54,923 nucleotides of DNA from Candidatus Omnitrophota bacterium (GCA_041309145.1 JBFZAG010000152.1:1-54923); one strand, 5' to 3'. Numbered from the stretch's first letter, positions 3-45,000 are shown. Numbers and translations: made by a program. The notes: generated from the sequence alone by a model not told the origin.

Positions 3-3000
3 GCGCTTTATTTCTTCAGGGAAGGCATTGTAGTCCAGATCGGAGCTGTTCTGCTTGGCAGGTGGACCGGCGGCTCTTTGGGCGCCTGGATGTATCGGAC
101 ATTGAACGACCAGAAGGATGGGGGCCATGTGAAGAAATACCAGATCGGCCTGGCGGCTTTGTTTATTCTGTCCTTGTTTGGGATCTCGCCGCTGGGGGTT
201 TTATTCCTTATTCCCGCCTATGCGACCGCGTTTATCTTGTGGAAAAGATATTCCTCTCAATTATACGCCCATCACCCGCAGCGCCCCCATCCGCTTATGA
301 CGGGAGTATTATTGGTGGGAATGGTTTTATTCGCGGGCTTTGTTCCCGCGGTAAGCCTGGATATGTTGTTGAGCGGCTTGCTGGTGGCGGTGTTTATCGG
401 CGGAGTGGCAGGTTTTAGCTTGTTCGCCTGCATCGTTTCAGCTAAAGAGCATGATATCCTTGAGGGATTGAACCTCGGTTCCCGGCCGAGTAATTACGTC
501 GCCGTGGGGCGCGCTTTTGAACGCAGTTTCGGCAATTTGAAAGAAGGAAATGTCCCCGAGGCCGTATTGACGGCCAAGATGTTCTTTGAGATGCCCATTG
601 AGACCGAGATGAAACAAATGCTGAGCTTGGGCGACCCTATGGTTGATGATGTGCTCATGGGCACGGAATTCAGGAGATTCAACGCGATGGAGTTGGCGGC
701 TATGGGTTACGGAAATGAGTACCTGAGCCTGATAAACGCGATCGCCAGAAAAACCGGAGAAGGGACTTATCCCTATATGATAACGCGCAATCCCTACCTG
801 GACGGCGGAAATATCGTAGAATATCTCGTCGGCAATCCTTTTGGGCTGTGGGCTGTGCTTACCGCGGCGATGGGATTGCTGAGCTGGCGGGTGGTCAAGT
901 TCAGCGCCATGACCGGACAGCTTGATCAAGCCGTAACTCCGGAGCTTTACCAGGCAATAGGCCGGGTTGTTTTGATGTTCGGAGCTATTTCGATTTTAGC
1001 CGTAAATTTTGCTCCCGCCGGAATTATACAATTTGCGGTAGCGATAGCAATGGCCGGTATTACCGGAATATATCTGGGGCTGTTGATTTACAAATGGTTC
1101 GGCGGCCGTCCTCCTATGCTTGAGCCATATCGGAAAGTGCGCGGCTTCCAGAAGGATGGGGGAAAACCGGTTCAGACAAGGTTGCAAGCCCAGAATTTAA
1201 ATAACGAATTAGCGGAATTGTTATCCGCCGGTCCGGTCAAAGATTTTGTAATTCAGGAGATGGCCAAGAAAAACACGCTGTATCTCAATGACAGATGGGG
1301 AATAAGCATTCTGGACGGGATCGACAAAAACCGGCAGAATATACAAAGACAGGTTGGATTAATGGCATATTTTGAAAGAGGGCTGTTGATGCGTCCTTTT
1401 GTGAACTGGTTCGCCAAACCCGGTTCACGTATGCCGACAGTTTACAGCTTGATCGCCGAATCTTCTGTTCTTGGAGTACATCTGGCAGAAAAACAGGTTG
1501 ATTTCAAGAGAATGGGGATCAGCAAATCTCCGATCCCCGGAGGTTACGGCAGTCCGGCCTTCCGTTTGTCTACGGTGATGGAAGAAGCGGGATTCCCGAT
1601 GCGGGATAATCCGACAGAAGAATTTGTCGCGCCTTTAACCAAAGAGATCGCGGGGCTGATCGTTAAGGATGCCAGCGGAAGATTCCAGGCGCTGCCGGTT
1701 CCGTTTACGGAACAGCATATCCTGATCGACTGGGAAGGCCGGCCGATCGAGATGTGGCTGAGTGAAGGAAGGTATATTCGCCAGGAAATATTTGAATCGC
1801 TGTCGGGTATCGTCAATAAGCCCGGAGCGATCTTTATGGAAAGGCATCCTTTTGACAAACTGATGGAAGATGCCAGGCGCAATAAGTATGCGCCGGTCGC
1901 GCGGTATCATTCTCACCCGCTCAGGAACGAAAGCTTATTGCATCCCGCCTTGCTTCCGCTGCAGAGCATCCCGGATATCGTTATCGATCCGGCCGGCACC
2001 AGAGCAAAAATTTACACCTTTATCCATACTTCAGGCTCATCTCAGCAGCAGTTCCTGGAGAAAGACAGGCAGCTATGGGGTGTTAATATGGTCGAGGAGA
2101 ATCATGACCTTTTTGCCATGCTCAAGAATAAAAACTATCAAAAGGCGCGGCAAGAAATTATCAATCAGTATTTTGCCGTACAAGAAGTCTCTTTGATCAG
2201 CCTTGACGGCGGGATCTTTGAGCCGTTTGCGCCTATCGATAATTTCCGAAGAGCGTTTTACGCAAAGATAGACGAACTGGCCCGCCCCATATTCGGCGAT
2301 CTGGTCGGCACTCCTCTTTGGCAGGATTATGTATTTTTCAGCTGGGCCATTGTCGCGTCGACCCTGTTGTTTGCCATGCGCTATCATTACCGGGACGGAA
2401 TGGTTAAACATCCCGGTTTAAACGATCAAGCCAAACAGCCATATCTCAACCATCGCATCGCAGAGGGGCTATTCAACCATCCTCTGATCAGTTTTTCAAT
2501 ACGCTCCGCGGTTTCTTTGGCAGTAATCACTTTCCTGCCCCTGGAGCATGTCACCTTCATATCCGGGATGGTCTGTTTTATTCTGTCATTATGGTGCGGA
2601 CAGGCGGCGGGGGTCTGGTTATACAAGGCGCAGGGGGGGACAATTTCACCTGTGGTGAGAGAGCAGAAGGATGGAGGGAGAAAGCGCGTTGAACACGGGC
2701 TTTCGGATAAGGCGCTGGAAATGGGCAAGCGAGGGTATCGGTTAGTATATACGCCGCCGGTTCTGGGTAAATTGAAACTCGGCGTCCTGGAATTGCCGCA
2801 AACCAAAAAAGACGGCGACAAGGATGCGGGCGCGCTGGTCGGCGGGAATATGGCTGTTAAGGAAGGCATTCATGTTGAGGCCGCGGATAAGAAAAGAGAC
2901 GGGGGAGAAGTTAAAAAGCCGGCTGAGGAGATTTTTGCGGAAGACGGAAGCCTGGCGGCTATTTTTGCGGATACGAAGAGATCGGTAGAGAGATTCACGC

Positions 3001-6000
3001 CATTTTTAACGGATAATAATATAGCATTCCAGCCGGCGTTGACTTTCGGCAGAAAAGGCCAGAAGGCAGAAGATATCCATTATCAGCGCCCGGCTCCCGG
3101 GCAGCATAGGCCGCGCATAGTGCTTATGTTAGTTCTGGAGGGTAAGATCAAAGCCCGGGCGTATACCGTTTTAGACGAGTTTGTCGCCGAGAGGATTGTT
3201 GAGTCCGGCAATTTGATCATGTTTACCCAGGCTTATTATATTGAGTACCTGGAAGATACCAGGATGCTGGAGATCAAACAGGGGCCTTACCCCGGGGATA
3301 AGAAGAGGGACCGGGTTGTCCTTAGAGAGATCAAAGACGGCGGCAAGGCTGTCGGAGCGACAGTGAACACTAACGGAAAACAGCGCAAGAGTATTATCGA
3401 TATAACCGTGAATTTGGTGAAAAAACAGTTTGACGGTAAATTTATCGGTGCGCACAAAACTTACAATAAGATCATAGATCTCAAGAATCTCGCTTTTGCC
3501 GCTAAACAGGAATCTCTGTTCAACAGCGGGCAGATCAAACAGCCTGATTCCCGCGGGCCGCCCCGATCTTCCGAAGCAAATGAATTATTCCGGAACAATT
3601 ATTTGAAATGGACGGTGATCTTAAGTATTTTCACCGCTTCTTTCTTAACGTCCTCAGCAGTAATCCTGTCGCATTTTACCCTTGCGTCAATTTTGTTCAG
3701 CCCGTTTTGTTTTATCTTGAGCCTGGGCGGCGCCAAATTCTTCTTCTCGACTATTCTGACCTTGCTGGCGGCCAAACCGGTCCTGAATAAGACCCCCTAT
3801 AATGAAAAATTCTGCACGAATGTTCTTCCGAAAACATTTGAAAAATTACCTTCTCTTGCAATTGTCGTTCCTATAAAGGACGTTTCGAACCGCATTGTTC
3901 TGGAGACCCTGAGAAGAGCGGTCCTGGAAAGAGCGGATTATAAACAGGCGGGAGGCAAATGCTGTATTGTGGCGATCGATGACGACCTTTCAGTGGAAGA
4001 GGCGAATAGGTTGGGTTCGAGTACCCAAAAAGAACTGGAAAGGATCAATTTCTACCGCGCAAACAATATCGCTATCGTGGTTAGCCCCAGAGACATCGAT
4101 AGAAAAGGCAAGTTCGGCAAGCCTATCGCCATGAATTACATGCGGGAAGCATTGAAGAGCAATAACCTGCGTGGAGGCTATGTCGAAGGCGGGGCGAAAT
4201 TGGAAGAAGACGCTATCGTACTTCTTCTGGACAAGGATACCTATATTGCTCCGGGAGTCAGCAAGTTCATAATGAAAGAGTTTCAGGATGCCCAAAGATT
4301 GGCGTATATCCAGTGCCGCTGCGAACCTTATAACTTAAGTGAAAATTATTACACAAAAATTGTCGGATATATGACTACCCAGTATTATGATCTGGCTTTT
4401 CCGGCAACCAGCTATTTAGGGTCGCTTGTTCCTTTGGTCGGCCACGCGGTGTACCTGAGAGCTAAATTCTTTGACTGGAGCGAGAACAGGGTCAGCGAGG
4501 ATCTGGACCTTGCCATGCGCCTGGTCACCAAAGGGTTTTACGGGAAATATATGGATCTGCCTCCCGAGATGTCCTTCACGGAATATGTGGCCAATAATTT
4601 TGAAGAAGAAGCGATGCATACCCACAGGTATGTGTACGGAGCTCTGCAATTCGTTTTTAATCCGATCACTCAGTGGCACAAAAAAGGAATTATGAGCTCG
4701 CAGGTGAAGGAGTTCCTCAATTCGCCTCATATGCCCTGGTATATTAAGGTCGACCTTCTTATCTATATAGTAAATCTTTTCTCCCACCCCAGTATCTGGA
4801 TATTTTTATTCCTGGTTTTTCCTTTCCTGCCCCCGCATCCTTTATCCGCTGCCGGGCCGATCATCTTTTACTTTGTCATGGGAACCTGGGCGTCGGTCAT
4901 GGTCAACAGGGCCAGAGATGTAAGCCGGACCGAGAGGGGAATCATGGGAGAAATATTTTTTCATCTGAAATACGCTCTTCCTTACGGGTTCTCGGTTTCT
5001 TCCCACTCCTGGTACGGTTTTAAGGGTTTCCTGGATTTCGCCTTAGACAGAAAACCTAAATTCCGCAGCTCCGCAGCGGGCGAAAATTTGCCTGACTATT
5101 CTCTCCGGGAAGCGATCGCCCAGTCAAGATATTTAGCCAGAAGCCTCACGGAAAGCGGGCTTTTCCTGGCGCTGGTAGTTATTTCCGGGTTCCGCATTTT
5201 GGGGGCGGATATTCAGTTTATCGCCCTGACAATTTGGGCATTGGGAAATTATTTTGTCTGGCAGAACCTGATGAATCCGATCCTGGTAAAAAGCCTGGGC
5301 CGGGCCTCCAGACACGGATTAAAACAAATTAAATCCGGACTTCATTTAACCCGCTTGGAAGATTCTAAAGACCAAAAAGTTTTTGATATGCGCACTGCCG
5401 CCCAGGATAAAGCTGATCGGGACGGCGGGCAATACCTTGCTCAGGCTGTCGAACCGAAACCTGGTTTCGGAGCGCTGGTCAGGACCTTAGGCTCGGTTTC
5501 TTTTGTCATGCTCAAGGGAGGGCTCTGGGGCGGGATCGAACCTTTTACCCGCTACAAGATCCAACAGCGGCTGATGCGCGCTTACGCCATATTCGAAGGG
5601 CCGATAAACTATGAGACCATTGATGAGGTCATTAGGCGTTGGGGGCACACCTCATTTACCTATGCGCTTAGGGATCTGGAAGATTCCGGCGATTTTGACA
5701 GAGAAGATATTGAATGGGGAAAGTTCCTGGTGAGCCAGAAAGATGGCCGGGAATTCGCGGCCTGGTTTAAAGAGCTCAAAGCCCGCTATCCGCAAAATCC
5801 TTTCTTGAAAGAATTTGACCTTTGGCTGCAATACAGTTTAAAAGGGTCCCAGAATCTGATGCTTATCCGCAAGGTCTCGCGCCAGGAAGTATTAAAAGAA
5901 TTCAAACTGGATGCCGAAAAAGCAACAGTATTACTAAAAGGGAGAAATCCTTTTGTCGTGGATGAGCAGGATTTTCTCAAGGCCGCGGTGGTCGGCGCAA

Positions 6001-9000
6001 CCGATATCTTTGCGGCGCATCAGCGAAGCCTTAGGCAGGTGGTCAAAGACCGGTATCAATATGCCGGCCGCCTGGCCAATTTCGAGGATATGGTCAAAGC
6101 TAACGGTTTCTCCGTTGACAAGTTCGGAAAATTCTTTAACGCGGTGCATTGCGCTTCCAGCGGGGAGGAGCTTGACATCGAATTCAGCCTGATGAAAGAG
6201 AATGAGATTAAATACTTCGCGGATCGGCTGGCCAGATTTGTTAGCCGGCGCCGGGATCTCGACTGCGGCGAAATAGATATTTTTAACATCGAGCGGAACC
6301 TGATAGCCAGGCCGGAAGCGCTGTCCGGCGCCCGGGGCAAATTGCGCTTGGCCCTTGATACCCTGTTTGATTCCAATAAGTTCATCGAAGGGCTTGCGCC
6401 GGCTTTACAGATCTTTGACCTTAAGAGCAAAGCCTTGCCGTATGATTTTAAGATCGTCATCAAGGATGACGCGGAATTTCTGGGAGGGTTTGATGAAAAA
6501 TCCAAAAGCGTGTTCATCAACACGGCAATATTTGAGACCGGGCCGCCCCAGGTGATCGCTTTTATAGTCCTCTTAAACGCCTACAAACTTACCTATCCTG
6601 CCAAACCCGATGAAGTAGACGCGGCGGTCGTCCGCGAGGTCTACCGGCAAGCCGCCTACAGCAAAGATCCTTCTGATTCTATCTTTGTGCAGACCCGTAA
6701 TTACCTTATTGCCTACCTTCGATCAAATCAAGACGCTCAAGCGAGTTCCTGGCTCGGGCAATTAGATGAATTAAACCGGATCATGGCCCTGCGCCGGCCT
6801 GAGCTTCTTGATAATCCCGCGGAGTTAACCGGGCTGTTCAATTATCTCATTCGCCTGCGCGTTATCGCTTATAATCCTGAAAGCTCGGCTGAAAAGAAAG
6901 AGTACCTGGTTAATGGCAACCCGCTTTATGCCTGGTTTATGGCGGTCAGGGCTGACCGGCCCGCGGCAACAGTCAGTTTCAATAATCCGCAAACCCAGGA
7001 CCTGGAAAGTATTTTTGAACGTTCCGAACATCCGGCCGGATTCTGCGATCTCTGCAATAACCTCAAGATCAAGATCGAAGAAATAGCTCATATGGCCACG
7101 ATCCAGGCGATAAACAAACAATGGTGGATCAGGCCGAACCAGTTCCCGATTTTTAATAACCACGTGCTGTTATTGCCGCTTAAAGAAGGCCATGAAGTAG
7201 AAAAAACTCCCCAGCGGCTTATCCCGGCCTACATTGAAGACCTGCTATATATCAGCAATAAATACCCGCTGATGAGGATCTTCTTTAACAGCTACGGCGC
7301 CGGAGCTACCCAGGGGCATTTTCACGGCCAGGGAATCTTTAACCGGGAGCTGGTCCCGGAAAGATACAACCAGGAATATTTCAGGACCGTCAACGGCGTA
7401 AAGATCAGCCTGCTCAAAGATTATCCGGCCATGTGCCTGGTATTTGAATCCCAAAATACCAAAGAACTGGCTGAGCTGGTTCACCGGCTAAGCGATATCC
7501 TGCTTAAGACCGGCAAGCCGCATAATGTTTTATTCATCAAGGGCAAGCTCTATTTGTTCCTGAGGAACAAAGAAGTGCCGGCAAACTTTCCGCGGGTCAG
7601 GTTCGGGACGCTGGAAATGTGCAGCGAAATGATCCTGCCTTTCTGGGTCGATTATTACCGGACAGAGGAAAAGATCAAGGCGGCGGTATTTGAAGTGTTG
7701 AACGCCATTAAGTCGGACGAAAAGAAAACCCTGGCCCAAAAACTGCAAGAGCCTAAACCGGCCACCCTGCATAATATACTGCTTAACTTCTACAAAAAAG
7801 AGCTTTATGAAGGCGTTCTGAACAAAAGCGGTTTCGACGCAATAGAAATCCAGGTGCGGGATATTTTCGTCAACGTAAAAAAAGCCGGTATTAATATTAT
7901 CCGGCCGGAATCATTAGATCCGATGGGCAGTTATGTGGATGATAGCCTGGGACAAAAGATCAGAGACGCGCTTGTTGACATTTCTTTTAAAGCCGAGGAT
8001 CTCGAGCGCTTATTCCAGATATATGAAGCCCTGGAATATTTAGCCCCGAGGCAAGAGTTGCGCCAAGCGGATATTTTGATCCTCCTGGGAAACGAAAATC
8101 TGGAAGTATTAGAAAAAGCCGCCGAAGTGGCCGCTTGGGCCGACCAGGTTATTGTTTCGGGCTTCAGGGGAAGGCTGACCGAGGACTTGATCGAGAACGC
8201 GCAAGCCCGGTACGGCAAAGATTTATTATCCGGAAAAGATGAATCGGCTATAAGCGAGGCAGAGGTTATGGCTAAGATCTTAATAGCCAAAGGTGTTCCG
8301 GAAGAGAAGATCAAGCTGGAAGCAAGATCCAGGAACACCAATGAAAATGTGCAGTATACCAGGGAGCTGATCGAGCGGGAAAACCTCAAGCATGACACGG
8401 TGATCGTCATGCAGACCCCGCTGCAGCAGCGCCGGGCGGCGTTCGGGTTTAAAACCTTTTTCTTCGCGAATACAGAAGTGATCCATTACGCCTGGGGCAT
8501 ACCGGATGAATACGGCATGATCGATCCCGCTAAACGCAGAGTGCTCTGGACTGAGATCATCAATGAGATCGAAAAGATAGCCCTGTACGGAAATTTGGGC
8601 CTTCATTTCTATGATTTTGATCTATCGGAGTTTCCGGAGCATATCAGACGATTGCTCAAGATCAGATTAGCTTCCCGGATCGACCATACCAATTTAAAAG
8701 CGGACGCCACTGAACAGGAGATTACCAGGACCTGCCAGGAAGCAAAAGATCACGGGTTTGCCTTGGTAGCGATCCGGCCTCAGATGAGCGGAATTACTGC
8801 CAGTGAACTCGAGGGCTCTCAAGTTAAAGTCGGGCCGGCAATAGGGTTCAAGAATCTTATTACTGCGGCTGACAATGCTGCGGATCAGGAAAAAGCTTTA
8901 AAAAGATACGATATCTCAATAGAAGAAAAGTTCGAAGAAATCCGGGATTCGATCTCAGTTATAAGGAGACATGATCTCGGTTTTGAGATCGATTTTGTGA

Positions 9001-12000
9001 TCAATCTGTACAAAATGCTGGTTGAGAATAATAGCGATCATGTTGAAGCAGAGATCAAGATTCTTATTGAGTCTGTGCGCAGCCTGGAAAGGCCGGGAGA
9101 GCATATTATTGTTAAAGTCATTTTTGAGAATTGCTATTTAAGCGACGAACAGAAACAAACAGTATGCGCCTGGGCTGGGAAATACGGGGCGGATTTCGTA
9201 AAAACCTCTACCGGGTTCGGCCTGGCCGGAGCAACAGCCCAAGACGTATCTCTAATGAAAAAGAATATTGATCCGGCTATGCAGGTCAAGGCCGCCGCGG
9301 GGATTAGAAATCTTAAAGATATGTTTTCCATGCTCAACTCCGGAGCGTCCAGGATCGGCACCAGCGCGGGAAATGCGATCATTGCAGAAGTGGATAATTC
9401 CGGAGCGAAAAATATAGACGGCGGTCATGTGTTGGCCATAAACGGAGAGCACGGCGCGGGCAAAAGCACTCTGGCTAAAGAATTGGCAAAGATCACCGGC
9501 CTGCCGATTTTCAGCGGCGGAGCGATCATGCGCGGATATGCCGAAAAGAGGGGGATGAGCGTTAAAGCTTATACGGAAAAGTTCCTGATCCTGCCGGAAA
9601 ACGCCGAAGAGAATAAAAAGATCAATAATGCCATTGACCGGGCTCAGGAATTTGCCATACACAACGGCAATATTATTACCGAAAGCAGCCTGGGCGCATA
9701 TTACGCCGCGAAACACAAGGCTGATCTGGCTGGGCGGAATGTGAAGGTAACCAGGATCCTGCTGGTAGCTGATTCCCGGGCCAGGGCAGAGCGTTCAGTG
9801 CGGGGCATTTTGAACGGAACCCGTTCTCAAGATGAAATGATGACGGTGGAGAAAAAAGAGCGGGAGTTGATCGAAAGAGACGCTTTTGACCGGAAAAATC
9901 TTTTGCAGCTAACTGGCAACGTCTTTGATATTTTCGATACCCTGAATTATGACCTGGTGATCAATGTGACCGAGAAGAATCTGGAAGATGTTCCGACAAT
10001 GGCCAGAGCTATTCTCGTCTTTGCCGGTTACCGGGAGGAAGAAAGAGGAGTTCTGACAACCGATAAAGTTTTTGACGTCGCCGTATTCAAACTTAGATTA
10101 AATCCCAAAGAAATCGAGCTGATTGTTTCTCTGCAGAAAAAATTCAGCAACATAATGTCCTGGTCGGGCAAAGACGGCATTGTCAGGATCAACGGCAAAA
10201 AAGCGCCGCAAGCTAAATTCAGGCCGGTTGCCACCCATAAAAAACTGGCGGAGCAGGGATTTGCAGCGGTTATTCCTTTTGGCAATCTTTTCTGGCATCC
10301 TCACTATGTTGTTTACCGCTCCGGAAAGCTGTTTTATCGAAAAGGCGAGAAAAGAAATATCGCCAAAGGATATGAATACCCGAGCCTTGTTTTTTATAAA
10401 AACGGTACTGTGGGATTTAAAGCAATTAATTTTAATCAAAAAAACGGCTGGTGGAATAATAACAAAGCTCGCATCCGGACCGTTATAAGCGCTCCGACGA
10501 TAATAAAAGACAGCAAAATACTTGACCTCGAAGGAGTTCATTTTGAAGACATAAGGCACGTTTTCAGATGTCCCAAGATATTGGAGGGTCAGGATAAATG
10601 GTACGGAAGTGATATTTATTTAGGCAGAGAATTACTTTATTCCGACAGCCTGGCAAGATCACGCGCGTTTAAGGGAGAAGCCATAGAGGTGTCCTTAGAC
10701 AGGTATGACCTGACCTGGGAACAAATAGAAGAGGCTTTATCTGATGCCGGTTACAGCTTGGTTGAAAATCCGGGAGATGTCCGCTCGCGCGGCCAAGTTT
10801 ATCTGGATAAGGCATCCAATAAGATGGTTATTATAATTAAATTCTCTCAATATCCTCAAATGATCATGGCTTTGGACCAGGGGAATCAGCTCGTCTTTTA
10901 CGCTTTCTCCGGAAAATCCAGCAGAGAAGGTTTGACATTGGGCCAGATCCAGGAGTATCTGAAGGCGCAAGGGATAAAAGATGCAATGATCTTATGTAAC
11001 GGCAGCGATGTGAGTATGGAACATAACAATAAAGTAGTCTTGCCGACATGGAACAAGAGGAAAGCTTTTACCGCGATGATCTTTATTTATCCGTCAGGAA
11101 AAAAGAAAAATGAAAAGCAGGACGGCGGAGAAGATCAAGTAGTAGATAATAAGAAAGATTACGGCATTCTCAGGACGGATAAATGGCTTAAGCACCAGAG
11201 CAGAGTGGAGCAGGTTTACAACGGTGATTTCTACGGAGTGATCCCGGTAACGATACAGTTTGTGCCTTCTTTACTTTGTAATTTCGTATGCTGGGGCTGC
11301 ACTTACGCTGACCTTAAAGAAGATCCGAGGAATCATAATTCCGGATTGACGAGAAAACTTTCTTCCCAAGAAAAATTGATGGATTACAGTTTGATGAAAG
11401 AAGCGATCGATAAGCTTCGCAGGGATGGGGTCGAGGCGATAATCTTTACCGGCGGCGGAGAACCGACCATGCATCCTCAGCTGATCGATATTATGGAATA
11501 CGCCAGAAAGAAGGGCTTGAGAGTGGGGCTGTTCACCAACGGAAGCCTTTTGACCAAAGAAAAAATTATCCGGCTTTTAAATCTCAATCCCAGGTTTATC
11601 AGGATAAGCATCAATGCCGGCACAGCTCAAACTTATAATGCCATTCATGGGTTGCCTGAGGATAGCGGAACGCTTGACACGGTGCTCGGCAACCTGGAAT
11701 TCTTAGCTAAAGAAAAGGCAAAAAGGGAAGCGGAGATCATAAGCAGGCTTAAAGCAGAAGGTCGCAACGAAGAGGAGATCGATGCTTTTATAACCCACAA
11801 TGTCACTAACGTGAGCGTAGGTTTTATTGTCAATCCTTTAAACGCCAAGGAAGTAGAGATATTAGCCGGAAAATTAAAAGCGATTTATCAGAAAGATATT
11901 CGCGGCGGGATCAATTATTTCCAGATCCGCCCTACGGTAAATTATGAGCGCGGCAAACAGTATCCCAAAGATCTGGAAGAAAGAATGAGCAAGCTTCAGC

Positions 12001-33000: not shown

Positions 33001-36000
33001 ACTTGTTCTCCATATCCGATAAATTGATCGATGAGGCTTTAGAAGAAGCGCTGGCTCAGCGCCCGGATTTAAAAGATAAATTAGGGCTGAAAGATCCTAA
33101 AAAAGACGGCGGTCAAATAGGCGCGAGCGCTAAATCTAGAAACAGCCTGGGCGCTTTGGTAGCCATGATATTAAGGGGATACGGGGTGGGTAGACCTACC
33201 GTGGCAGGTGGTCCCACCCCCTCCTTAAGCTCTCAGAAAGACGGGGGGAAAGAAAAGGCAAAGAAAACAATTGCTGTTGCCGCTCAAGAAAAGGATCTGC
33301 GCGAGCAGCATATCGCGGACCAAAGGAAAATGCGCCGGCGGGACCTTGCCGAGATCATCTTATGCCCGATAGGAATAACCGCTATTTTACTGGTGACCCT
33401 CGGCAAAAGCATAGGGTATGTTCCGGCGTTTTTAGTAGCGCTGGCCTATGTGGGATCTGTTTTTGCCAGAGCGGCAGTGACCGACGAGATCCACTGGTAC
33501 AGCCAGGAATTGGGAAAATGGAACCTCAAGATAATCGATTGGCCAAAACTCGGGCAATTCTTATACAACAACTTAGAGGGGCTGTTTATCTTTACTTTGA
33601 TCAACGGCTTAATTTTGTGGACTTGCCTGGACTACGCCCACCTGGCCAACGACTTCACCATCTGGGCGATCCAATTGCCGGCCAACGTGATCTTAGGCGC
33701 TTTTTACTCAAAGTTCAACCGCATCCGGCAAGGTTTCGGCAAAGAAGCTCAGTCAAATGAAGTGTTCAAAGACGTGACCTTGAACATCGGATCGGCGTTC
33801 TTTATGCAGATATTTTACAATTACCTTTTTACCTTTTTACCGATGGATACTCAAGGGGTAAACGGTATATACCAGGTTATCCGCAAGGCTATCAGCCAAA
33901 CCTGGAGCATGACCATCGATTACCGTTATCCGAAGCTGGTGATCAGGAGAAAACTCGGCAACATCAAACTCTATATTCCTTTTAACTATAAAGAGTTCCA
34001 TAATGCCGTAGAAACTCCCGGAGGGATCGTGATCAAGACCAAAGTGATCAACGCTTCCCGCCTGGCTAAAGATCTGGCTGACGATATGCTAGTCGGGATG
34101 GGCTCTTTGGTGGAGCGGATGAAAAAGGAGTATAAAGGCAAAGATCTGTCAAAAGACGCGGATCTTGACGCTATGCTGGCCGAGATCCGCAGGTCGTTCT
34201 TGCAAAGCAAAAAGGCCAAAGACGGACAGCCGCCCCTTATGGTAAGCACCGCTAATATCGACGGGCTGATGAAATTCCGGGAGAAATTAGCTAATCAATT
34301 TGTCAAGCAGGGGATCCCGCTTAAGATCAATACGATCAGCGAAAAAGCTCTTGTCCGCAAGCTTGATGTCGACAGGGAAGAAGACCGGCCGGAGGAGATC
34401 AACCGGTTTATAAAGGAACATCTGACGGTCTATGAAAGAATAGGACGCGCCAAAACAGACCAGGTTTACCGGACCCGCCTGGCCATGGCTTCTTTGTTCG
34501 GAGGAAAGAAAAACCGCCGGGCAGAGTGGTGGCAGCAAAACCTGGGCGCAGAAGACGTGGCTGAAGAGGAAGTCTTATTGCTGGCGGTTGATCGGTCGAG
34601 ATTGCCCGCCCAGGTGCAGGAAGAATTAAAAGACAAAAATGTCATCGTTGACCGGGTAGCCGGAGCGATAATTTTATTGACCACCGGAAAAGATAAGTCA
34701 TTGTTCGACCTTACCTATGAAGCGAGCATGGCGATCTTCTGGCTGCTGGGTTTTAATTCCCCGACCATAGCTTATCTTAAGGAAAAAGACCCGGAAACTT
34801 TCGGAAAAGAATTTATAACTTACATCCAGGCCTGCCATAAGCCGGTGAACATCGAACTTTTCGGCTGGAGCCATCGCGAGATCCTGGAAGGGATATTAGC
34901 CCAAAAGACCATGGATTTCATGGCCAGGATCGGAGAGACCGAAAGTATCGCCTACAAGAAATTCATCACTTCTTTTTCCGAGCTGGGAGCTATCCCGGTC
35001 ATAATCGACCGGTTGGATTTTCCCTTCCGGAAGCTGAGCCGCTTATATTTTGTCCGGCGCTACCTGGAAGAAACCGGGCTTAAGATCACCGCCGAAGAGC
35101 TGATCCAGCGGAACGCCACCGAGCTATATTCCGATTTCTGGAGCGCATTGTTTGATCACGATCTAGAGATGGCCGAAAGAAACAGCAACGGTTTCTGGAA
35201 GAAGTTAAAAGCCAGGCTGAATTTATCTTCTCAAAAAAGCGACACAGACAACAAAGCCGCTTTACCTAAGATCAGAAGCATCGGTTCCGGCATTGCCCTG
35301 ATTTGCTCAACCTTCCGTGGCTGGTGGTGGGCAAATTACCTAAGGGCAGCCGGAACCGTAAATTTTAAAACGAGTGGCGACCAGCCGCAACAAGACGGCG
35401 GCCGGATCATCCCGATCATCGTGAAAAGCGATGTGGTTAAAATGGGGATTTACAAGGTGTTGGAGGCTCTTCCCGGAAAGAAGCTGACCCGCTTGGAGAT
35501 CGAAAAAGCCACCGGCCTTAAGACCGGAGTGGTCAAAAAGGAATTGCGGAGATTGCGCAAGGCTGGGATCGTGGCGCAGGATAAAAAAGGTAGGGATTTT
35601 CAATACGGTCTGAGCAAATCAGCCAGGGGAAAAGACCGCATAGAGCTGCTTCAAAAGAAAGGTTTTATTGTCCTGGAAGATGACCTAAGGGAAATAGTCC
35701 GGGAGTTTAAGGCCGAAAAAGGGGGAAAGATCTCCAGGGCGGAAGTTGCCCGGATGCTCAGAGATGAGAATAAGATCAACAGAAACAGAAGGTCGATCGG
35801 CCGCTTATTCGCGGATGTATTCCTGGAGGATGAGATTTCCGTCCAGGAGATCCGGGAGGAGTATCTTAAAGCTAAAAGTTATTCCAAGACGGCTCAGGCC
35901 TTCAAGGAGAAAGGTAAAATAATCGACAGGAACACTATCTCGCGGATAATCAACGAAAAGAACCTCGGATCCAGGTCAGCCTATCATCGCCAAACCGCTC

Positions 36001-39000
36001 TTGCGGATTTAGACCGCGGCTTGGTCCAGGGAATGGGCAAGCCGTTTAGCGCCGCCAATATCTTGAACCGGGAACAGAAAACCGTTACCCGCAATTCCAA
36101 TATCTGGAAAGGGCTAAAGGAGCTTGGGGCATTTTTAGATCAATATCCTTTGAGCCCGGAAGAAAGGATCGCGGCCAGGAGATTGCTTTTGCAGGCCGCG
36201 GATTCCCGGGAGTTTATTATTGACAGCCGGTTCGCTGAAGATAAGACTCTGGGGAGCCTGGAAAATGCCGGCCTTCTTGAGCCGATCAGCCGGAGCCAGT
36301 ATATATTGGCGGAAAAAGTCGAAGAGTTTCTCTTTACCCGCAAGATCATTGATGCCAGGCGCGAATCCGCCAAAGTCTATCTGGCATTTTTACTGAAAGC
36401 TGAGGGAAAGAATGCCAGGGAAATCGCTGCGGCTCAGGAAGCGCCGATCAAACGGGTAACCAATAATTATTTCCTGATTTTGGCCAAAGCCGGGCTGATC
36501 GAGCATAAGAAGCCAGGTTTTTACAAAGTCACTCTTGAAGGGCAAAGGTTAATAGCGGATAAAATATTTGTCAGCGCTCAAAACAAAAACATGTTCGCTC
36601 AGGCTAAAGCCAGGAATCTGGATGCGCTGAAGCTTTTAAGAGTGCTGGCGCTGCTCGCAGAGAAAGTGGCAATAGCCAATATCGCTCAAAAGCTGGGCAT
36701 GGAACAGTCTGCGCTAAAAAAAGAATATCTGCGCTTCTTGGACAGGGAAGCCGGCCTGATCATGTTGTCCAGGTATCAGGATAACCAGGGGGGGTGGCGC
36801 GAAGAGTATAAGGTGTCAGGCCGGGGAAAGAGGCTGGCAGACAGCATTGATCCCAAGTTAAAGCAAAGTATTCTGGGTTGGTTGGCCAAGGCTGATCAGG
36901 ATGGCGGGATAAAGATCATCGGTTTGGCCGGCATTGTGGGAAGCGGGAAAACCGAGGTCGCTGCCAGGCTGACGGAATTGCTGGGCGATGAGGCGGAAAT
37001 AATCGAGATGGATAAGGTGGGAGATCAAGCCCGGGAAGACAGGAAATACGATATTGCCGGAGCATTCGGCCGGGGAGTGATCAGCGGCTCGGGAAAAGAA
37101 GTGGATAAGGAAATGTTGAGGATGCTGATCTTAGGAGACCTAAAACAGATCAAGATCCTCAATAAGATCCTTTTTTCGCGGATGGAAGAGATCGCCATGA
37201 CGCGTATCGAAGAGGCGCGGTCAGAGCAAAAGAAGTTCGTAGTCATCGAAGCGGCGGTATTGCCGAATTTGAAGAGCTTGTATTCCTTATGCGATGAAGT
37301 CTGGCTGGTTGAAGCGCAAGATTCATTAAGGCGTCAGAGGTTATTGAAAAGAGGAAAAAGTTTGGATTGGATCTTAAAGTTCGAAGGCTTGCAGAAAGAC
37401 GCCTTAGAAGAATTAAACCGGAAACCCGGCATACGCCATATCAACAATAACGGCACCACCGCCGATCTAAAACTGGCTGTTTTCAAGGCTCTGGCCGAGT
37501 TTAAGAGTAAAGACGGCGGAATGATCCGGCCGGTTGCGCTGATAATCCTGGACGGCTGGGGATATAAAGAAGATGGTTCCGATAACGCGATCTTTCGGGC
37601 CAGAAAGCCGACCTGGGATAAATTGATCGCCAAACACCCGTATACTTTCCTGGAATCGTCGGGATTAGCCGTAGGTTTGCCGGACGCGGAAATGGGCAAT
37701 TCCGAAGTCGGCCATTTGAATATCGGCGCCGGAAGAGTGGTTAAACAGGGAGTGGTGCGGATCAACGAAGATATTTCCAGAGGCACATTCTTTGCTAATC
37801 CCGCTTTGAAGGCTGCCAGCGAATTTCTTAAGGCCCATCCGGATAACAGCATCCACTTTATGGGGCTGATCTCCAACGCGGTAGTCCATTCCGATATCAA
37901 GCATTTGCATGCCTTATTGGAATTCGCCAAACGGGAAGCAATTACCAACGCATATATTCACGCTTTGACTGACGGACGGGATTCCCCGGCTCAAAGCGGA
38001 GCGACCTGGATGGCTAACCTTAAGGAAAAGATTAAAGAGGAAGGCAATGGCGAGTTTGCTTCGGTAGTCGGCAGATATTACGCCATGGACAGGGACAACC
38101 GCTGGGACAGGGTAAAGCTGGCCTACGAATTGTTCACCGAAGGCCAGGGTAATCCGGCTAAGGATGCTTTAGCCGCAATAGAAAATTCATACCGGGAAGG
38201 GCTGACTGACGAATTTATCAAGCCTATCGTTATCACTAGAGATGATGATAAGCCGGTGTCAACGATCAAGAATAATGACGTGGTTGTATTTTTCAATTTC
38301 CGGGCTGACCGGGCCAGGGAGATCACCCGGGCATTCATGGAAGACGATTTCGCGGGTTTTAAGCGTAACCTAAGACCCAATGTCAAATGGCTGTGCATGA
38401 CCGAATACGATAAAGAATTTTATAAGTTTAATGATCTCTCGGTAATCTTCGGCCCGGAATACGTCAAAAATAATTTAGGCGAATATATATCAGCACAGGG
38501 TTTAAAACAGCTGCATATAGCGGAAACCGAGAAATTCGCCCACGTGACCTTCTTCTTTAACGGCGGAAGGGAAAAACCGTTCGAGAACGAAGACCGGATA
38601 TTGATCCCTTCCCCTAAAGAGGTGGCTACGTATGATCTAAAACCGGAAATGTCCGCTTATTTGGTTACAGAGCAATTACTCAAAAGAATACAAAGCGAAG
38701 TCGATGATTTTATCGTTTTGAATTACGCTAATCCGGATATGGTCGGCCATACCGGGAAAATGGTTCCGACCATTCGGGCCATAGAGGTGGTCGACGAATG
38801 CCTGGGCAAGGTCCTGGCAGAACTGGCAAAACATAACGGGATCGCCCTGATCATGGCTGACCACGGAAATGCCGAAGAGATGGCCGGAGAGCATCAGACA
38901 TCCCATACCCTTAACCCTGTTTTCTTTATGCTGGTAGACTCCGCGAACAGATTAGGCAAGATCAAGTTGCGCGAAAAAGGGGCTTTGTGCGATGTCGCTC

Positions 39001-42000
39001 CGACAGTGCTGGAGATCATGGGGCTGGAAAAACCGCGGGAGATGACCGGAGCAAGCTTGATCTTCAGAAATAAAAATTTTGGCTCGGATGAAAGCGGTTT
39101 CCTTAAAGACGGCGGGGAGCGCCAGACAGAACTGGCGGATTTTTCACTTAATATGACAATTGCTAATTCCCGTTTAGCTATTAAAGAAAACTTGGGAGTC
39201 GCTGAACTGATGCTCCTTGATGAATTTGAGCGTTTCGCGGCCCAGGTAAAAGCCGTGTCTATTACGAATCCCAGGATAAGAACCGACCGCCAAAAGTATA
39301 ATTACGAAGGTATTGTGTTCATTGAATTGCGGGAAATTACTCCGGGCTTATTTTCTTACCAGGAAGATGCCGGCATTAAGAAGAGACTGACAAAAACAGA
39401 TTTTTACAGGCTGATAGCCGGAAAGCTCTCTCAAAATTATAAAAAAGCAGATGCTTTTGCCTGGTTGAGAGAAGGGAAAATTAAATACGCGATAAACGGA
39501 AAATTTGCGGAGATCGATGCGCAAGATAAAATTGTCCAGAGCGCTTATCCGATGGCCGAGTACGAGCCGGGGTATATCAATCTTTATCTGTTGCTTGAGA
39601 TCATCATGCTGGCTAAACAGGGTTTTATCGGAATGAAGGAGTTATCGCGGCTCGAATGGAAAGCGATTTTTAATCCCGGGGTTTGGAAAAGCAAGGAAAC
39701 ATACCGCGAAACCGATTCCCGCGGTTTTGAGCAGGTTATCTGGCACCGACTTTTCATACCCTCAGAGATACTTAAAGACTTCATCAGCCGTTACGACAAG
39801 ATCAACCGGGATTATTGGTGGCTGGTAAGAGTCGATCCGTCAGGAAAGATCCTGGAGACTAACCCGGCTTTCGGATCCTGGCTGATGGATATCGCCCGGG
39901 AAAACGAAAAAGACGGAGGCAAAGATCTTCTCATTGAAGAAATCAACAGATCCACGGCGCAGGAGTTAGAGGCTTTAGGAAAAAAATTGGCTTTAAACGA
40001 GTATCAAGGGTTAGCAAATTTTGACCCGCGGACCCAGGCGGAAATAGCTTTTGCTTTCCTGAAACGGTTGTCCGCGGTTATGTCCCAGGAGGAAAGGGTA
40101 TTCCGGATACAAGCCGCCGATATCAAGCCTGTCAATTTTTTCGATCTTATCATTGCCCTTCCTGAAATGCTTAGGCTAGCCGGCAGATTGTTCGGGGGAA
40201 GGGAGTCCCGTTCCCGCTATTCTCCGGATACAATACGCCGCCAAGCTTTCATCACCAGCCAAGAACTTCGTCCTTTACAGGAAAAATACGGATTTGCCTA
40301 CGGCCGGACCTTCTCCGGTATGATCAATAGAATTGCTATCTTCCTGGGTATTAGTGAAACTGTTTTGATCGGCAAGCCGGATGTGCTGGCATTGTTGTAT
40401 TTGAATTCTTTTATGGTGAAAATAGGCGATAATCTTCTGGATAAGAAGCTGAAAGACGAGTTTATCCAGATGGAATCACAGGGACAAACAGTAACTAGGG
40501 AGCAGCTTGAGCGTCTATCAGGATTAGCCGGAGAAGTCACGCTTCGAACTTACGTAATTGCCGATTCAGTAGGTTCAACCCCGATGCTCCGGGCCCTTAA
40601 TACCATGCTCTATGAAGCCATGCTTTCCGTTTTTGACGATCAACGCAAAGTTCAGGCAGAAGACAGGACTGGTATTGATGGGGTCGCCGGTAATCACTAC
40701 ATAAAGAATTCTCCTGCCTACGTATTCTATGATTATGTTTTACGCCAGAATTATCCGGTTGATCAGAGCGTAGAGGATAGCATTAAACATTTTAATGGCA
40801 TGATGGAGTTTATGCAGATGGCTGATGATTTGAAAGATTTTGCGCAGGATCTGGGCCGCCAGCCAAATGCGGTGGTAGCTGCTGCTGTCGAAACCGGAGT
40901 ATACCCGCAATTGCGCGCCGCAATTATGCATCAGCAATGCCCGGTCGATCCTTTTGTGCGTTATTTATGGCTGAGAAAGAATTTTCCGGAAGCGTGGAAG
41001 AGGTTTTATGAAGCGTATGAAGCCAGCGCCGACAGATTTAATCGTTTTATGGCTGAGAAACAGCTTCAAGGTCTGGATAAAGACGGGGTTTTGTGGTGTT
41101 TCAGCATCATGGGGAAACCGAAAACATTCTTCAAAAAACAGTTCCCCGGGATATTGCGAGAGATTGTATTCGGAGCGCATCAGCCGGATGGGGGAGATAG
41201 CTCCGGTATCAACGCTATTGAGCGCGCAAAAAGATGGATACCTTTCTTTATTTTTGTCGGGCCGCTGAGCCTTATGGGCATACCTTGTTTGTTGCTACTG
41301 GGATCAATAGCTCCGGTTTATCTGGCTTTTGTCTATCTGGCATTTATTCCGGCCTCACTGGTTATTTCCAACGTGATCGTGGCAAGATTCGCAGATTTTT
41401 TGCTGCCCCGGACCTCTTTTGAGCGGGATAGTTCGACCAAGACTTTGTTCGGCAGGAGAAAAGTGATGTTTGCCGCCAGCATAATATATGCGGACGCAAC
41501 GTTTGTTTGGCTGGGCGTTCTGCTCTTGGCTCCGCAGTTTGCTTTACCGGCCTTTATTGTTTATCACGCGATGAGCGTTTTCTTCTTTGTGCGGATGCTC
41601 CTGGGCGTCGGGGAAGTTAAGGCCCGGATGACGGTGGCCAACAATTTTATTCCGGTTTTTCAGGGCGTACCGGGCTTTCTGAAGTTTGTGGATTCCCTGC
41701 TGGATTGGCGGGAACTCTCCAGAAATTATTCCAAAATATACGAGTATATTCTTTCCATCGGGGGCTTATTGTCGGGAATTCTGTTTATACCCGCCGAAAT
41801 CGCAGTGGATCTGCTTATCGGCAATAAAGCGGTGCTTGATGAAAAATACAGCATCTTGCAGGCGGTTAAGGGCGGGCATAATAAACTGACGGTATATAAA
41901 GGAGTTCACTTGTTCCTTTCTCAATATGCCGTGGCCCGTGTCACCGGGAACGCCCATGCGGCCCGGATTATCGAACGCGAGGCAATCAAGGCGATCCTCG

Positions 42001-45000
42001 ATGATGACATAATGGATATTGCCGAAGATACCTTCGAGAATAATTTCTTCCTGATGGATGAACAAGCGGCCAGAGAATTCCTGCGTAATCTCGATAACCT
42101 GGACGGCCTGGAACCTTGCGGAACTTGCGATTTCTGCGCCACCCTCAAGCCGTTGCCTTCATTGGAAGAGTACTATCTGCAGCAGAAAGCGCTTTTGGAG
42201 TTGCGTTTGTCCCACGCCAAGGGCAGGATCAAAGTCATTATTTTCGACCTGGATAAAACATTGTATTATTCCTCGGATTTGATGAGACGTTTTGTTGACC
42301 TTCTGGCCGAATATGTTATTGCGAATAAAAAAGACGTTGCCGCAGAAGATGTCAAAACGTTGCTCCGGGAGAACAAAAGCTATATCGCCACTCTCGCGCA
42401 TTACGGGCTGGACGCAGAATCCGCGCGCACTTATCTGTACGACAATATCGATCCGGCGAAGTACCTGAAACCAAATTATGTCCTGCGCAGGACGCTTTTG
42501 GAATTGAAGAATCAATACAGTCTGGCGGTTCTTACCAATAATTATAAATGTGTTGCCGAAAAGATATTAAGCGCCCTGTCTCTCGAGGATTGTTTCTCGG
42601 CGATTATCGGCCAGGAGCAATACGGGTTAGGCCAAGAGAAGCCGCATCCCGAGGCATTCACGACTGTCCTGGATTATTTGGATGTCGATCGAAACCAGGT
42701 GGTTATGGTCGGCGATGAGCTGGAGCAGGACATCAAAGCCGCTCAACGGATGGGCATTAATGCCATTTTGGTCAGTCGCGCCGGCGAAGATATTATCAAG
42801 AATGTGCCGGCAATATTGACGGATCTGGAAAAACAATATTCTTCCGGCAAGATCAAGGATGTTTCTCCTTTGCGCAACCGATTTACCTCTAAGATGGTGT
42901 TTAATCAAAGGAAGTCTTTCAGCTTACTGGGTAACGATAATAGCCGGGAGCTGAGTGATGAATGGGCAACCGCAATGCTATTAGGTAACATTTTTGGCAT
43001 GATGCTGGTAGGGGGTATTTTCTGGGCGCTCGACTTGCCGTTGTCCATGGGTGTTTTAACCGGGGCAATATTAGGTTATGGCTTAGCCCGATTTGCTCCG
43101 TTTATCAATCTCTATTTGACTCATCGCAGGGATTTCAGGTTCATGGAAAGAGTCCTGGATCGGGATTCCCGGGATATTTCGGATGAAATGTTGCAAATGG
43201 CGGCACCCGCATTCGGGGGATTGACCGAAAAATGCCAGCTTAAAATCATCAAAACCTGGCTTTCAGAGGGGCAAAGAGAAAAGGTGCGCAGGTTAATTTT
43301 GACCCCGGGCTGGGAGATATTCCGCAAGAAGACGCTGTTTTTCCAGCTGCCGGATGATGTCCGGAAAGAAATTGACTTCCGGATGATAGAACTTTCCGAG
43401 AAAGACGGCGGAAAAGAAGAAAATCGCCAAGAATTCGTTTTAAGATCGGAAGAAGATTTCAACCATATGCAAAAGCAAATAATCATACTTTTGTTCGAAA
43501 AAGATTTTCTGCATTATCGGGGCTTTCTTGGCGTGCTTAAATTTGCCCGTCATTACAGGATTATTCCTTCGGAATTATATAAAATATTAAAAATAAAAAG
43601 CTCATTATTCGAAGAAGATCTGGGGGGTCAGGAAACGGTTACATCTACCGTGGCAGGTGATCCCGTTTCTCCCCCCGCTTCTTTGAACAAAGACGGCGGC
43701 AATGACGATCAAACAGAGTTGAAGTGGATGGGGAATTGGCTGAGAGCCGTGGAAAAGGATTATCCCGGCGCAACAAAACGGGCGATCAAAACCAAGGTGC
43801 TCTGGTTAAACCAGATGAGCGGCAGTAAAAAAGACGACGCCCGCAAAGAGTTCGTCAGCCGGGTGGGAAGTATCAGGATGGCTAAATATCTGGTAGCGCT
43901 GGAAAGGATCCGGGGATACGCCCAGGCAGTCCTGGCCGCGGATAAGGCAGTCGAAATTCCGCTGATCTCTTATATCCCGATCCCTCCGGCCAAGATGAGG
44001 CGCAGGGTGATCGACGAATTGATCGAGAAAGAGGCCCGGATCAGCAAGAAGAACGCGGAACTTCTTCTGGATCCCACGGCTCTGGAAACGCGCTGGGATG
44101 AGATTTTCGATCCTTTAAGCGAGATCAAAAGAAATGTGTTCAGGGCGATCAACCGGAACGTGGAGAAAAATAAACCGGGGTTGCCTGTTATCGCTGAGCC
44201 TGACCATCAATTTGTGACCGCCTATATCCTGTTCCTGGCTCGGAACAACCAAATAACCACCAAATATAAGATCGACCAGTTCACGGCTTCGACCTTCGGG
44301 GAAATGTTGGAGTTATACAAAAAGGCTGTCGCCAAGCAATCGTACAAAGGCGGCCAATATAATAAGGAAGAAAAAGAGAAGTTAGAAAAAAAGATATTTT
44401 TAAAGAGAGTTCCGGTCCCGGAATTGAGCCGGAGGTTCCAGGTATTCTACGCGCTCCGGCAAAAAGGGGTTGAAGCAAACCCGGCCATGCAGGTAGCTGT
44501 GGCCTCGGATTTCAGGATAAGCAACCAAGTTTATCTGCACCTGCGCAAACAAAAAGATCCTTCAGGGGAACCGTTTACCCAGTCCCAGGCTGCTTCGATC
44601 GCCGCGGCCGCGGAACCCGTGGAAAGCGCGTACCAGGCCATTAAATTGCTGGAACAAGGCGAAAGCAGGAATATTGCCTCTGAGCTGGCTACTTCTTCAA
44701 GTCCTAAAAAGGCGATCAAGATCTATCTTATGCTCAAAGAAAAAACCAGCCTGCCAATGACCCGAATGCTGAAGATCGCTCTTAAGGCCGCCAGCCAAAA
44801 CGCGAATTTGGCGATCAAGAGAAACGAGCTGGACGGGGGATCAGCTTTACGCAAGGCTGAACTGGAATCTGATATAAATCATTTGCGGGAACTTCTTATC
44901 GGCAAGAACCGTTCTCTGGCTCCTCCGCAGAAGAACGCTTTAGCCCAAAAAGACGGCGGTTCAATTGTTCCCCAAAATTTTCTCTCGCTTTGGCAGGCTC

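Follow-up and report, generated by a model that had tools for sequence, protein, structure and literature searches.

How can a single polypeptide carry clusters of membrane helices between enzymes that use cytosolic substrates and cofactors, and does the answer tell an intact giant protein from one that is cut into pieces? We addressed this question for a contig of Candidatus Omnitrophota bacterium (GCA_041309145.1, JBFZAG010000152.1; 54,923 nt, referred to in full as the window), which is read through from end to end by one frame of this kind. The frame was found to be divided by a short amino acid mark, Asp-Gly-Gly (DGG), into units of mature-protein size, and all of its membrane clusters fall inside a few of these units. 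By a simple model, a topology with every cytosolic-type enzyme inside the cell appears to be available, so that the clusters by themselves are no argument for cutting; the case for cutting comes from the mark.

A six-frame stop count over the window revealed no stops in the 18,307 codons of frame +3 (nt 3-54923, the strand on which all features below lie) versus 465-1091 stops in each of the remaining five frames. The window is the entire contig C152 of a 1.93-Mb assembly of 171 contigs with a G+C fraction of 0.49, and since neither end of the contig closes the gene, the gene must extend past it. Further contigs of the same genome are likewise filled by long open frames or end in them, and the longest open reading frames (ORFs) in relatives of the same family reach 68,606 aa. 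As an internal piece, the window belongs to a giant multi-enzyme gene of a type known from Omnitrophota, and it is a genuine, unexceptional member of a remarkable class that has been described before.

DGG occurs 39 times in frame (first copy at nt 117-125, last at nt 52215-52223) compared to 5.1 expected, and 31 of these copies read [K/R/Q]-DGG. Cuts after the two glycines would yield 40 pieces of 29 to 2460 aa. None of the 39 copies lies inside the envelopes of the 28 non-overlapping Pfam domains detected on the chain, where 11.6 were expected and the minimum in 2000 random placements was 3, whereas six of the 28 domains start no more than 10 aa past a DGG (random mean 0.64, maximum 4). A CoaE-like and an iPGM module begin 2-3 residues past the mark, and residues 3-516 of the 532-aa iPGM module align with free-standing iPGMs at approximately 50% identity; a search of contigs with this module matched only housekeeping iPGMs from other phyla. 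The lengths of the iPGM, CoaE-like (204 aa), and Cof-type HAD (280 aa) modules are presumably the usual sizes of the free enzymes. Two outsized modules, nt 21162-28541 (2460 aa) and nt 5430-9425 (1332 aa), contain several domains without an internal DGG or DGG-like variant and appear to be genuine units of more than one domain.

Three short DGG-bounded modules of 76, 59, and 29 aa (nt 2679-2906, 20037-20213, and 29595-29681) share the terminal peptide V-[KR]-E-G-[IV]-H-V-E-[AV]-A-[DE]-K-K-[KR]-DGG; the 29-aa unit would be a free peptide if cut.

The mark extends beyond the window. In the 26 ORFs of at least 1400 aa from the same genome, DGG tops the list of over-represented tripeptides (155 copies vs 25.8 expected), whereas in the 1472 ORFs of 200-999 aa it is under-represented (67 vs 146.1, a ratio of 0.46) and ranks 49th of 4957 from the bottom. 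A search with modules 4 and 5 among 1.84 billion representative sequences recovered six relatives. Two of them are free-standing homologues of module 4 (342 and 324 aa), both terminating at the point where DGG stands in the window, and two giant-ORF fragments together retain DGG at both ends of their module 4 homologues. One of these fragments (P0004) also has DGG at the junction of modules 2 and 3, in a different module order (module 4, 2-like, 3-like). A conserved short motif thus stands at the borders of mature-protein-sized units, and the assignment of DGG as a real junction mark by the first-pass annotation, made from the sequence of the window, was borne out by its enrichment, its absence from Pfam domains, and its conservation in relatives.

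In other genera of the family, the mark is replaced. Giant-ORF pieces from G001 (5,178 residues) and G009 (5,694 residues) contain 18 and 14 DGG, respectively, and, like the 18,307 residues of the window, no SSP[VIL]. The reverse was observed for G013 (12,588 residues; 1 DGG, 19 SSP[VIL]), G012 (11,023 residues; 1 and 26), G019 (33,330 residues; 4 and 34), and G014 (2,298 residues; 0 and 5), and SSP[VIL] was found in G023 and G011 too. These giant-ORF pieces from the family carry either DGG or SSP[VIL] as their mark, never both. The serine residues of the SSP mark use both AGY and TCN codons, which argues that this mark is read at the protein level. Many C39-led giant ORFs of relatives showed no clear mark in their first 20 kb, and a crude count of cluster sizes in the giants of relatives was too noisy to be read. 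YTP in G021 was rejected as a junction mark because it is a tandem low-complexity repeat.

Several side observations concern other ORFs. A giant ORF of G010 (C1, nt 254100-274099) contains six copies of DNGG compared to 0.2 expected, irregularly spaced by 6 to ~1950 aa with two copies 6 aa apart, and DNGG may be a further type of junction mark. In the assembly of the window (G000), contig C167 has a complete 1786-aa ORF (nt 34673-40030) with 11 DGG and without a Pfam match; three of its modules have hydrophobic stretches of 32-52 aa that by eye resemble membrane hairpins with Lys/Arg (K/R) flanks, and the ORF has the appearance of a small 12-module polyprotein. Giant-ORF pieces on contigs C137, C109, C82, and C45 (loci L018-L024) encode triosephosphate isomerase, malic enzyme, pyruvate phosphate dikinase, amylo-1,6-glucosidase, GDSL lipase, GNAT, and HEAT repeats, and may be additional parts of the same gene or genes. 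On C137, a lone stop (nt 16971-16973) separates in-frame ORFs of 1578 and 5656 aa (L018 and L019); these could be neighboring giant genes, or the stop could be read through or stem from an error in sequencing.

Hydrophobic segments were mapped with Kyte-Doolittle (KD) 19-residue windows, the Goldman-Engelman-Steitz (GES) trapezoid, and profiles. The number of windows with a mean KD of at least 1.6 (24) was not above that of whole-sequence shuffles (mean 27; reached in 149 of 200). In contrast, four other measures were reached in none of the 200 shuffles: windows with a KD of at least 2.2 (8 vs 2.3), adjacent window pairs within 80 aa (10 vs 2.3), the longest run free of D/E/K/R (51 vs 29.7), and such runs of 30 or more residues (6 vs 0.58). 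For three isolated windows inside soluble domains (aa 3745, 7113, and 7564), sequence inspection points to probable buried strands of the radical SAM and HAD folds and not to membrane spans. All eight strongly hydrophobic clusters of the first-pass annotation were placed where it had put them, and a ninth, weaker one, missing from it, was added.

Helix counts were read from hydropathy, charge, and homologue comparison. Cluster A (nt 138-440, first-pass 144-440; aa 46-146, module 2) has 3 or 4 helices, its initial 35-aa uncharged stretch being one or two. Cluster B (nt 825-1091, first-pass 840-1091; aa 275-363, module 3) has 2 or 3, with five K/R in its 20-aa downstream flank, and the additional cluster C (nt 2325-2621; aa 775-873, module 5) also has 2 or 3, the first of them weak. 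Module 8 contains clusters D (nt 3609-3734, first-pass 3609-3775; 2 helices) and E (nt 4755-5273, first-pass 4749-5290; 4 helices). Cluster F (nt 31581-31766, first-pass 31560-31800; aa 10527-10588, module 23) is a 62-aa stretch read as a hairpin of two long helices broken at GPS, and cluster G (nt 33348-33845, first-pass 33355-33840; aa 11116-11281, module 26) has 4 or 5 helices, with seven K/R in the 20-aa upstream flank. Module 32 holds the last two clusters: H (nt 41235-41816, first-pass 41235-41820; aa 13745-13938), with four helices and a doubtful fifth that keeps a charged E/D in three paralogues and continues into a conserved soluble domain, and I (nt 42969-43109, first-pass 42966-43118; aa 14323-14369), a two-helix hairpin after a HAD domain. 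AlphaFold2 without an alignment gave a mean predicted local distance difference test score (pLDDT) of 36.4 for nt 126-2678 and 35.3 for nt 31467-33992; since this is too poor for a fold search, the helix segmentation alone was used, as a weak hint. A search of the ESM Atlas with modules 2 and 3 returned no usable match.

All nine clusters fall in seven DGG-bounded modules (2, 3, 5, 8, 23, 26, and 32), whose flanking marks start at nt 117, 801, 1155, 2205, 2670, 3336, 5421, 31458, 32139, 33240, 35394, 41187, and 43404. By the distances between helices and DGG, a hydrophobic segment lies within ~40 aa of the module start only in modules 2, 3, 5, 23, 26, and 32, and no soluble enzyme module of the window opens with a signal-like segment.

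Module 8 (nt 3345-5429) illustrates such a unit. Membrane-embedded processive GT2 synthases carry DxD, xED, and Q/RxxRW-type motifs. In module 8, a Glyco_trans_2_3 domain (67.8 bits) is preceded by the two helices of cluster D and followed by the four of cluster E, with DGG on both sides; DKD and SED are present, whereas HRY stands where QxxRW was expected. A relative (49% identity) that bears the label Candidatus Omnitrophica bacterium likewise has its GT2 module bracketed by DGG, and a free-standing GT2 membrane protein of 932 aa matches module 8 at 28% identity. A PDB sequence search with the module gave no matches. The view that this stretch is a DGG-bounded GT2 synthase-like membrane module was thus upheld, its bounds being DGG in the relative as well.

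The soluble modules between the clusters proved to be largely of the cytosolic type. The 28 Pfam domains, whose envelopes cover 29.8% of the chain, comprise GT2, DUF218, a P-loop cytidylate-kinase-like/AAA_17 domain, an NAGPA-like domain, two radical SAM domains (one with SPASM), an S-adenosylmethionine (SAM)-dependent methyltransferase, PHP, GH94, two ROK, three HAD-type domains, GH3, SIS, CoaE-like, iPGM, an amylase-like domain, and three GT5/GT1 glycogen-synthase-like units. The block between clusters E and F (nt 9426-31466) contains the P-loop kinase-like, two radical SAM, methyltransferase, PHP, GH94, ROK, HAD, GH3, ROK, and SIS domains. Winged helix-turn-helix (wHTH)-like, CoaE-like, and iPGM modules lie between clusters G and H (nt 35403-39116), and alpha-amylase-like, GT5/GT1 (twice), HAD-IIB, and GT5-like modules follow the last cluster (nt 44961-54923). 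Pfam confirmed the enzymes of cytosolic type between the clusters that had given rise to the topology puzzle; the wHTH matches were weak (E of 2e-5 to 6e-4, under the curated cut-offs). A separate CoaE gene of the same genome scores 174.8 bits compared to 53.1 bits for the CoaE-like module, and the window enzymes are divergent paralogues, distinct from the housekeeping copies.

Topology was modelled with a crude, home-made semi-Markov model (approximate transmembrane amino acid frequencies, K/R-weighted caps, spans of 17-27 aa). Because its unrestricted form over-called spans in soluble domains, spans were limited to the nine clusters. At two penalties, the optimum had A3 B2 C3 D2 E4 F2 G4 H4 I2, the N-terminus inside, and none of the 19 cytosolic-type domains outside; at two stricter penalties, placing all 19 inside cost 0.1 and 0.5 nats. 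An alternative with A4 and B2, each going from inside to inside, cost 2.7 nats. According to the model, a topology with every cytosolic-type enzyme inside is available, and the topology puzzle appears legitimate but readily solved. The first-pass annotation had held that an even helix count in every cluster, consistent with an intact tethered protein, would weaken its argument for processing; the all-inside solution has this effect, placing all 19 domains inside being free or costing 0.5 nats at most, while the individual helix counts remained soft.

That annotation had also offered helix parity as a means of choosing between an intact and a cut product, on the grounds that cutting would simply release the membrane modules as separate proteins. 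Parity fails in this role. A cytoplasmic protease needs the junctions on the cytoplasmic face, so that cutting keeps the same parity constraint unless it precedes insertion. A soluble module following an odd cluster would first have crossed the membrane, and cutting does not lift the constraint in this case.

We propose that the product is a cut polyprotein with all enzymes inside, a reading to which we give an even chance of being correct. Approximately 40 gene-sized modules would be joined in frame by the protein-level [K/R/Q]-Asp-Gly-Gly mark, seven of them with membrane helices, mostly hairpins or even bundles, and the others soluble cytosolic-type enzymes without an export signal. Co-translational insertion would return the chain to the cytoplasmic face past each cluster, or past A, B, and C jointly, and all ATP-, SAM-, or NDP-sugar-dependent domains would thereby lie inside. 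A putative site-specific protease would then cut at or next to DGG, releasing enzymes of ordinary size and a handful of separate membrane proteins, the GT2 synthase-like module among them. What argues for cutting is the mark: its strictness, the native-like termini next to it, its conservation in relatives, its replacement in sister genera, and its scarcity in ordinary proteins.

A number of results weigh against this reading. Cutting at or next to DGG is inferred from the mark. The depletion of DGG in ordinary ORFs is moderately specific, since related tripeptides have ratios of 0.41-0.64 across both genomes compared (EGG, NGG, and DGA, 0.57-0.64) and an SSP-type genome is also depleted in DGG (0.69). 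The unrestricted topology model returned 20-83 spans, some of them false calls within radical SAM domains; the helix count is uncertain by one in five of the nine clusters (A, B, C, G, and H); and the K/R count per 20-residue flank (1-7) is just modestly higher than the background mean of 2.6, so that the positive-inside signal is modest. Moreover, the restricted optimum leaves three DGG marks outside, along with module 4 and the soluble portion of module 2, and these marks would be out of reach of a cytoplasmic protease. Finally, no cognate site-specific protease for DGG was found: the two leads, C39 and JAMM, found no support, and there was no other candidate. A domain of the C39 type (36.9 bits; Cys and His both present) occupies residues 171-254 of a separate 4868-aa giant ORF on another contig of the genome. 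This ORF starts with a signal-peptide-like segment, which probably places the domain on the outer face, and C39 occurs in 23 of 41 related genomes, including those of both mark types, and thus does not track DGG.

C39 as the DGG protease is therefore unsupported, for its lack of covariation with the mark type and its position behind the signal-like segment. Module 4 (nt 1164-2213) was considered as a JAMM/MPN+ isopeptidase and rejected: its match to Prok-JAB is below the cut-off (E of 0.17; 12.3 vs 25 bits), its spacing is HxH-x16-SxxD compared to the E...HxHx7Sx2D of JAMM, and the HSHP...SIPD signature is absent from all six homologues, which have RSHP (three), HSFP, YTSP, and ISYP at the HSHP site, so that the His ligands are not conserved. 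A profile of the module 4 family matched no PDB entry at E of 1 or below.

The alternative that survives best is an intact protein, a string of enzymes tethered to the cytoplasmic face by even helix bundles, in which DGG serves as an uncut hinge, docking site, or modification site. We consider it a serious possibility, though not a probable one. It accounts equally for an all-inside topology that is optimal or nearly so, it agrees with the reading given to the 'TM-only' (transmembrane-only) class in the available text of a 2026 preprint (bioRxiv 10.64898/2026.06.07.730766), and it would make both the failure of the protease candidates examined and the possible outer-face position of three marks unproblematic. 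However, simple linkers are not generally expected to hold a strict three-residue motif or to swap it wholesale for another; moreover, DGG stands 1-10 residues ahead of native-like N-termini and falls in the bottom 1% when the tripeptides of ordinary ORFs are ranked.

A mixed topology of the sort that published TMHMM and DeepTMHMM runs suggest for other giants, in which the GH3, NAGPA-like, DUF218, and amylase-like domains and module 4 would lie outside and act on prey or envelope sugars, seems unlikely. The outer position of module 4 and part of module 2 in the best model and the five uncertain helix counts leave room for it, and most detected domains of related giants were predicted to be extracellular in the sections available of West-Roberts et al. 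(2023; bioRxiv 10.1101/2023.11.21.568195). On the other hand, the GH3, NAGPA-like, and DUF218 domains share one inter-cluster stretch with radical SAM, kinase, and GH94 domains, and since no hydrophobic cluster separates them from the enzymes that need ATP or SAM, they must be on the same side; nor does any soluble enzyme module have a signal-like start.

The codons of the mark are biased. In the window, Asp is encoded by GAC in 33 of the 39 copies compared to a background of 38%, and GGC is used in 27 of 39, whereas the third codon of the mark (Gly) and the preceding Lys codon are unbiased; in G001, GAC is used in 17 of 18 copies. The bias may reflect selection for accuracy at a critical site. 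It is also what would favor a mark that acts on nucleotides or in translation (by internal initiation, mRNA cutting, or ribosome skipping, the modules being made separately with no protease), but we regard this as very improbable, because the residue past DGG as a rule has no start codon, the bias spares the neighboring codons and is compatible with accuracy selection, and the SSP mark uses both serine codon families.

The cut polyprotein proposed here can be compared with systems already known. Short cleavage motifs are used by viral polyproteins, as by the picornavirus 3C protease and by the coronavirus papain-like protease, which cuts after LXGG. The likeness lies in a single frame with many units of mature-protein size, a junction motif that varies by lineage, and membrane units among cytosolic enzymes; the differences are that the present gene belongs to a cellular genome, is at least ten times larger in scale, and is one for which no protease was found. 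C39 peptidases process double-glycine leaders, and both the candidate cut after Gly-Gly and the presence of a C39 domain with Cys and His in the genome recall them, as does a weak PDB match to 6mpz (E of 0.054). In contrast to such leaders, no amphipathic leader pattern is evident by eye ahead of DGG, the 15 upstream residues being hydrophilic on average; moreover, the C39 domain probably faces outward, and C39 is equally present in SSP-type genomes.

The closest comparison is with the Omnitrophota giants themselves ('Archaeovorins'; the 'multi-enzyme metabolic cluster' class). Shared features are an ORF that runs for tens of kb without a stop (at least 18,307 codons in the window, against the 7,000-10,000 aa or more that mark the class), membrane helices strewn along the chain at a density of about 1-2 per 1000 aa, and GT, GH, methyltransferase, radical SAM, ROK, and glycolytic-type domains, which are paralogues diverged from the housekeeping enzymes. 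The giants of the class are headed by a signal peptide and a C39 peptidase; here, a giant ORF on a different contig of the same genome has C39 following a signal-like N-terminus, whereas the N-terminus of the window's own gene lies off the contig. The nearest named homologue is labelled Candidatus Omnitrophica. The differences concern a SecA-like domain, for which Pfam gave no match in the window, itself only part of the gene, and the junction motif, which is present here and unmentioned in the available text on the giants. Giant ORFs with many helices were described in the part available of Seymour et al. (2023; PMC10066038). In the sections available of West-Roberts et al. (2023), all full-length giants have many helices, TMHMM and DeepTMHMM disagree, glycolytic domains are predicted to be 'extracellular', perhaps through an overlooked helix, and cutting by C39 or S8 is proposed with the statement that information on cleavage points is absent. 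The accessible text of the 2026 preprint describes a membrane-anchored class, the bulk of the protein being cytoplasmic in the TM-only class. As far as these sources go, the interleaving of helices and enzymes and the resulting topology puzzle are already known in print. In the available main texts (supplements aside), 'DGG' appears in neither West-Roberts et al. (2023) nor the 2026 preprint, and the word 'motif' is absent from the latter and used once in the former. A literature search on giant Omnitrophota ORFs and cleavage sites found none, the polyprotein papers among the matches listed being viral only.

The literature asks whether these proteins work as one megadalton chain or in pieces, and which face of the membrane their enzymes occupy. 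In the window, the membrane segments belong to discrete, motif-bounded modules. The topology puzzle does not discriminate between an intact and a cut product; the DGG mark is the useful lead, since it gives the exact residues at which neo-termini can be sought in proteomic data and makes the choice directly testable. Because a topology with all enzymes inside is available, the published predictions of extracellular glycolytic enzymes may be artefacts of miscounted helices. More broadly, and tentatively, as a picture with somewhat less than an even chance of being right, the giants may be true bacterial polyproteins, cut by a lineage-specific protease at a short mark (DGG in this genus and G009, SSP[VIL] in others) and built with even-helix cassettes, such that any order of modules keeps the junctions and the enzymes cytoplasmic. 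If true, this would be a grammar by which modules are shuffled in an entire 'operon in one protein'.

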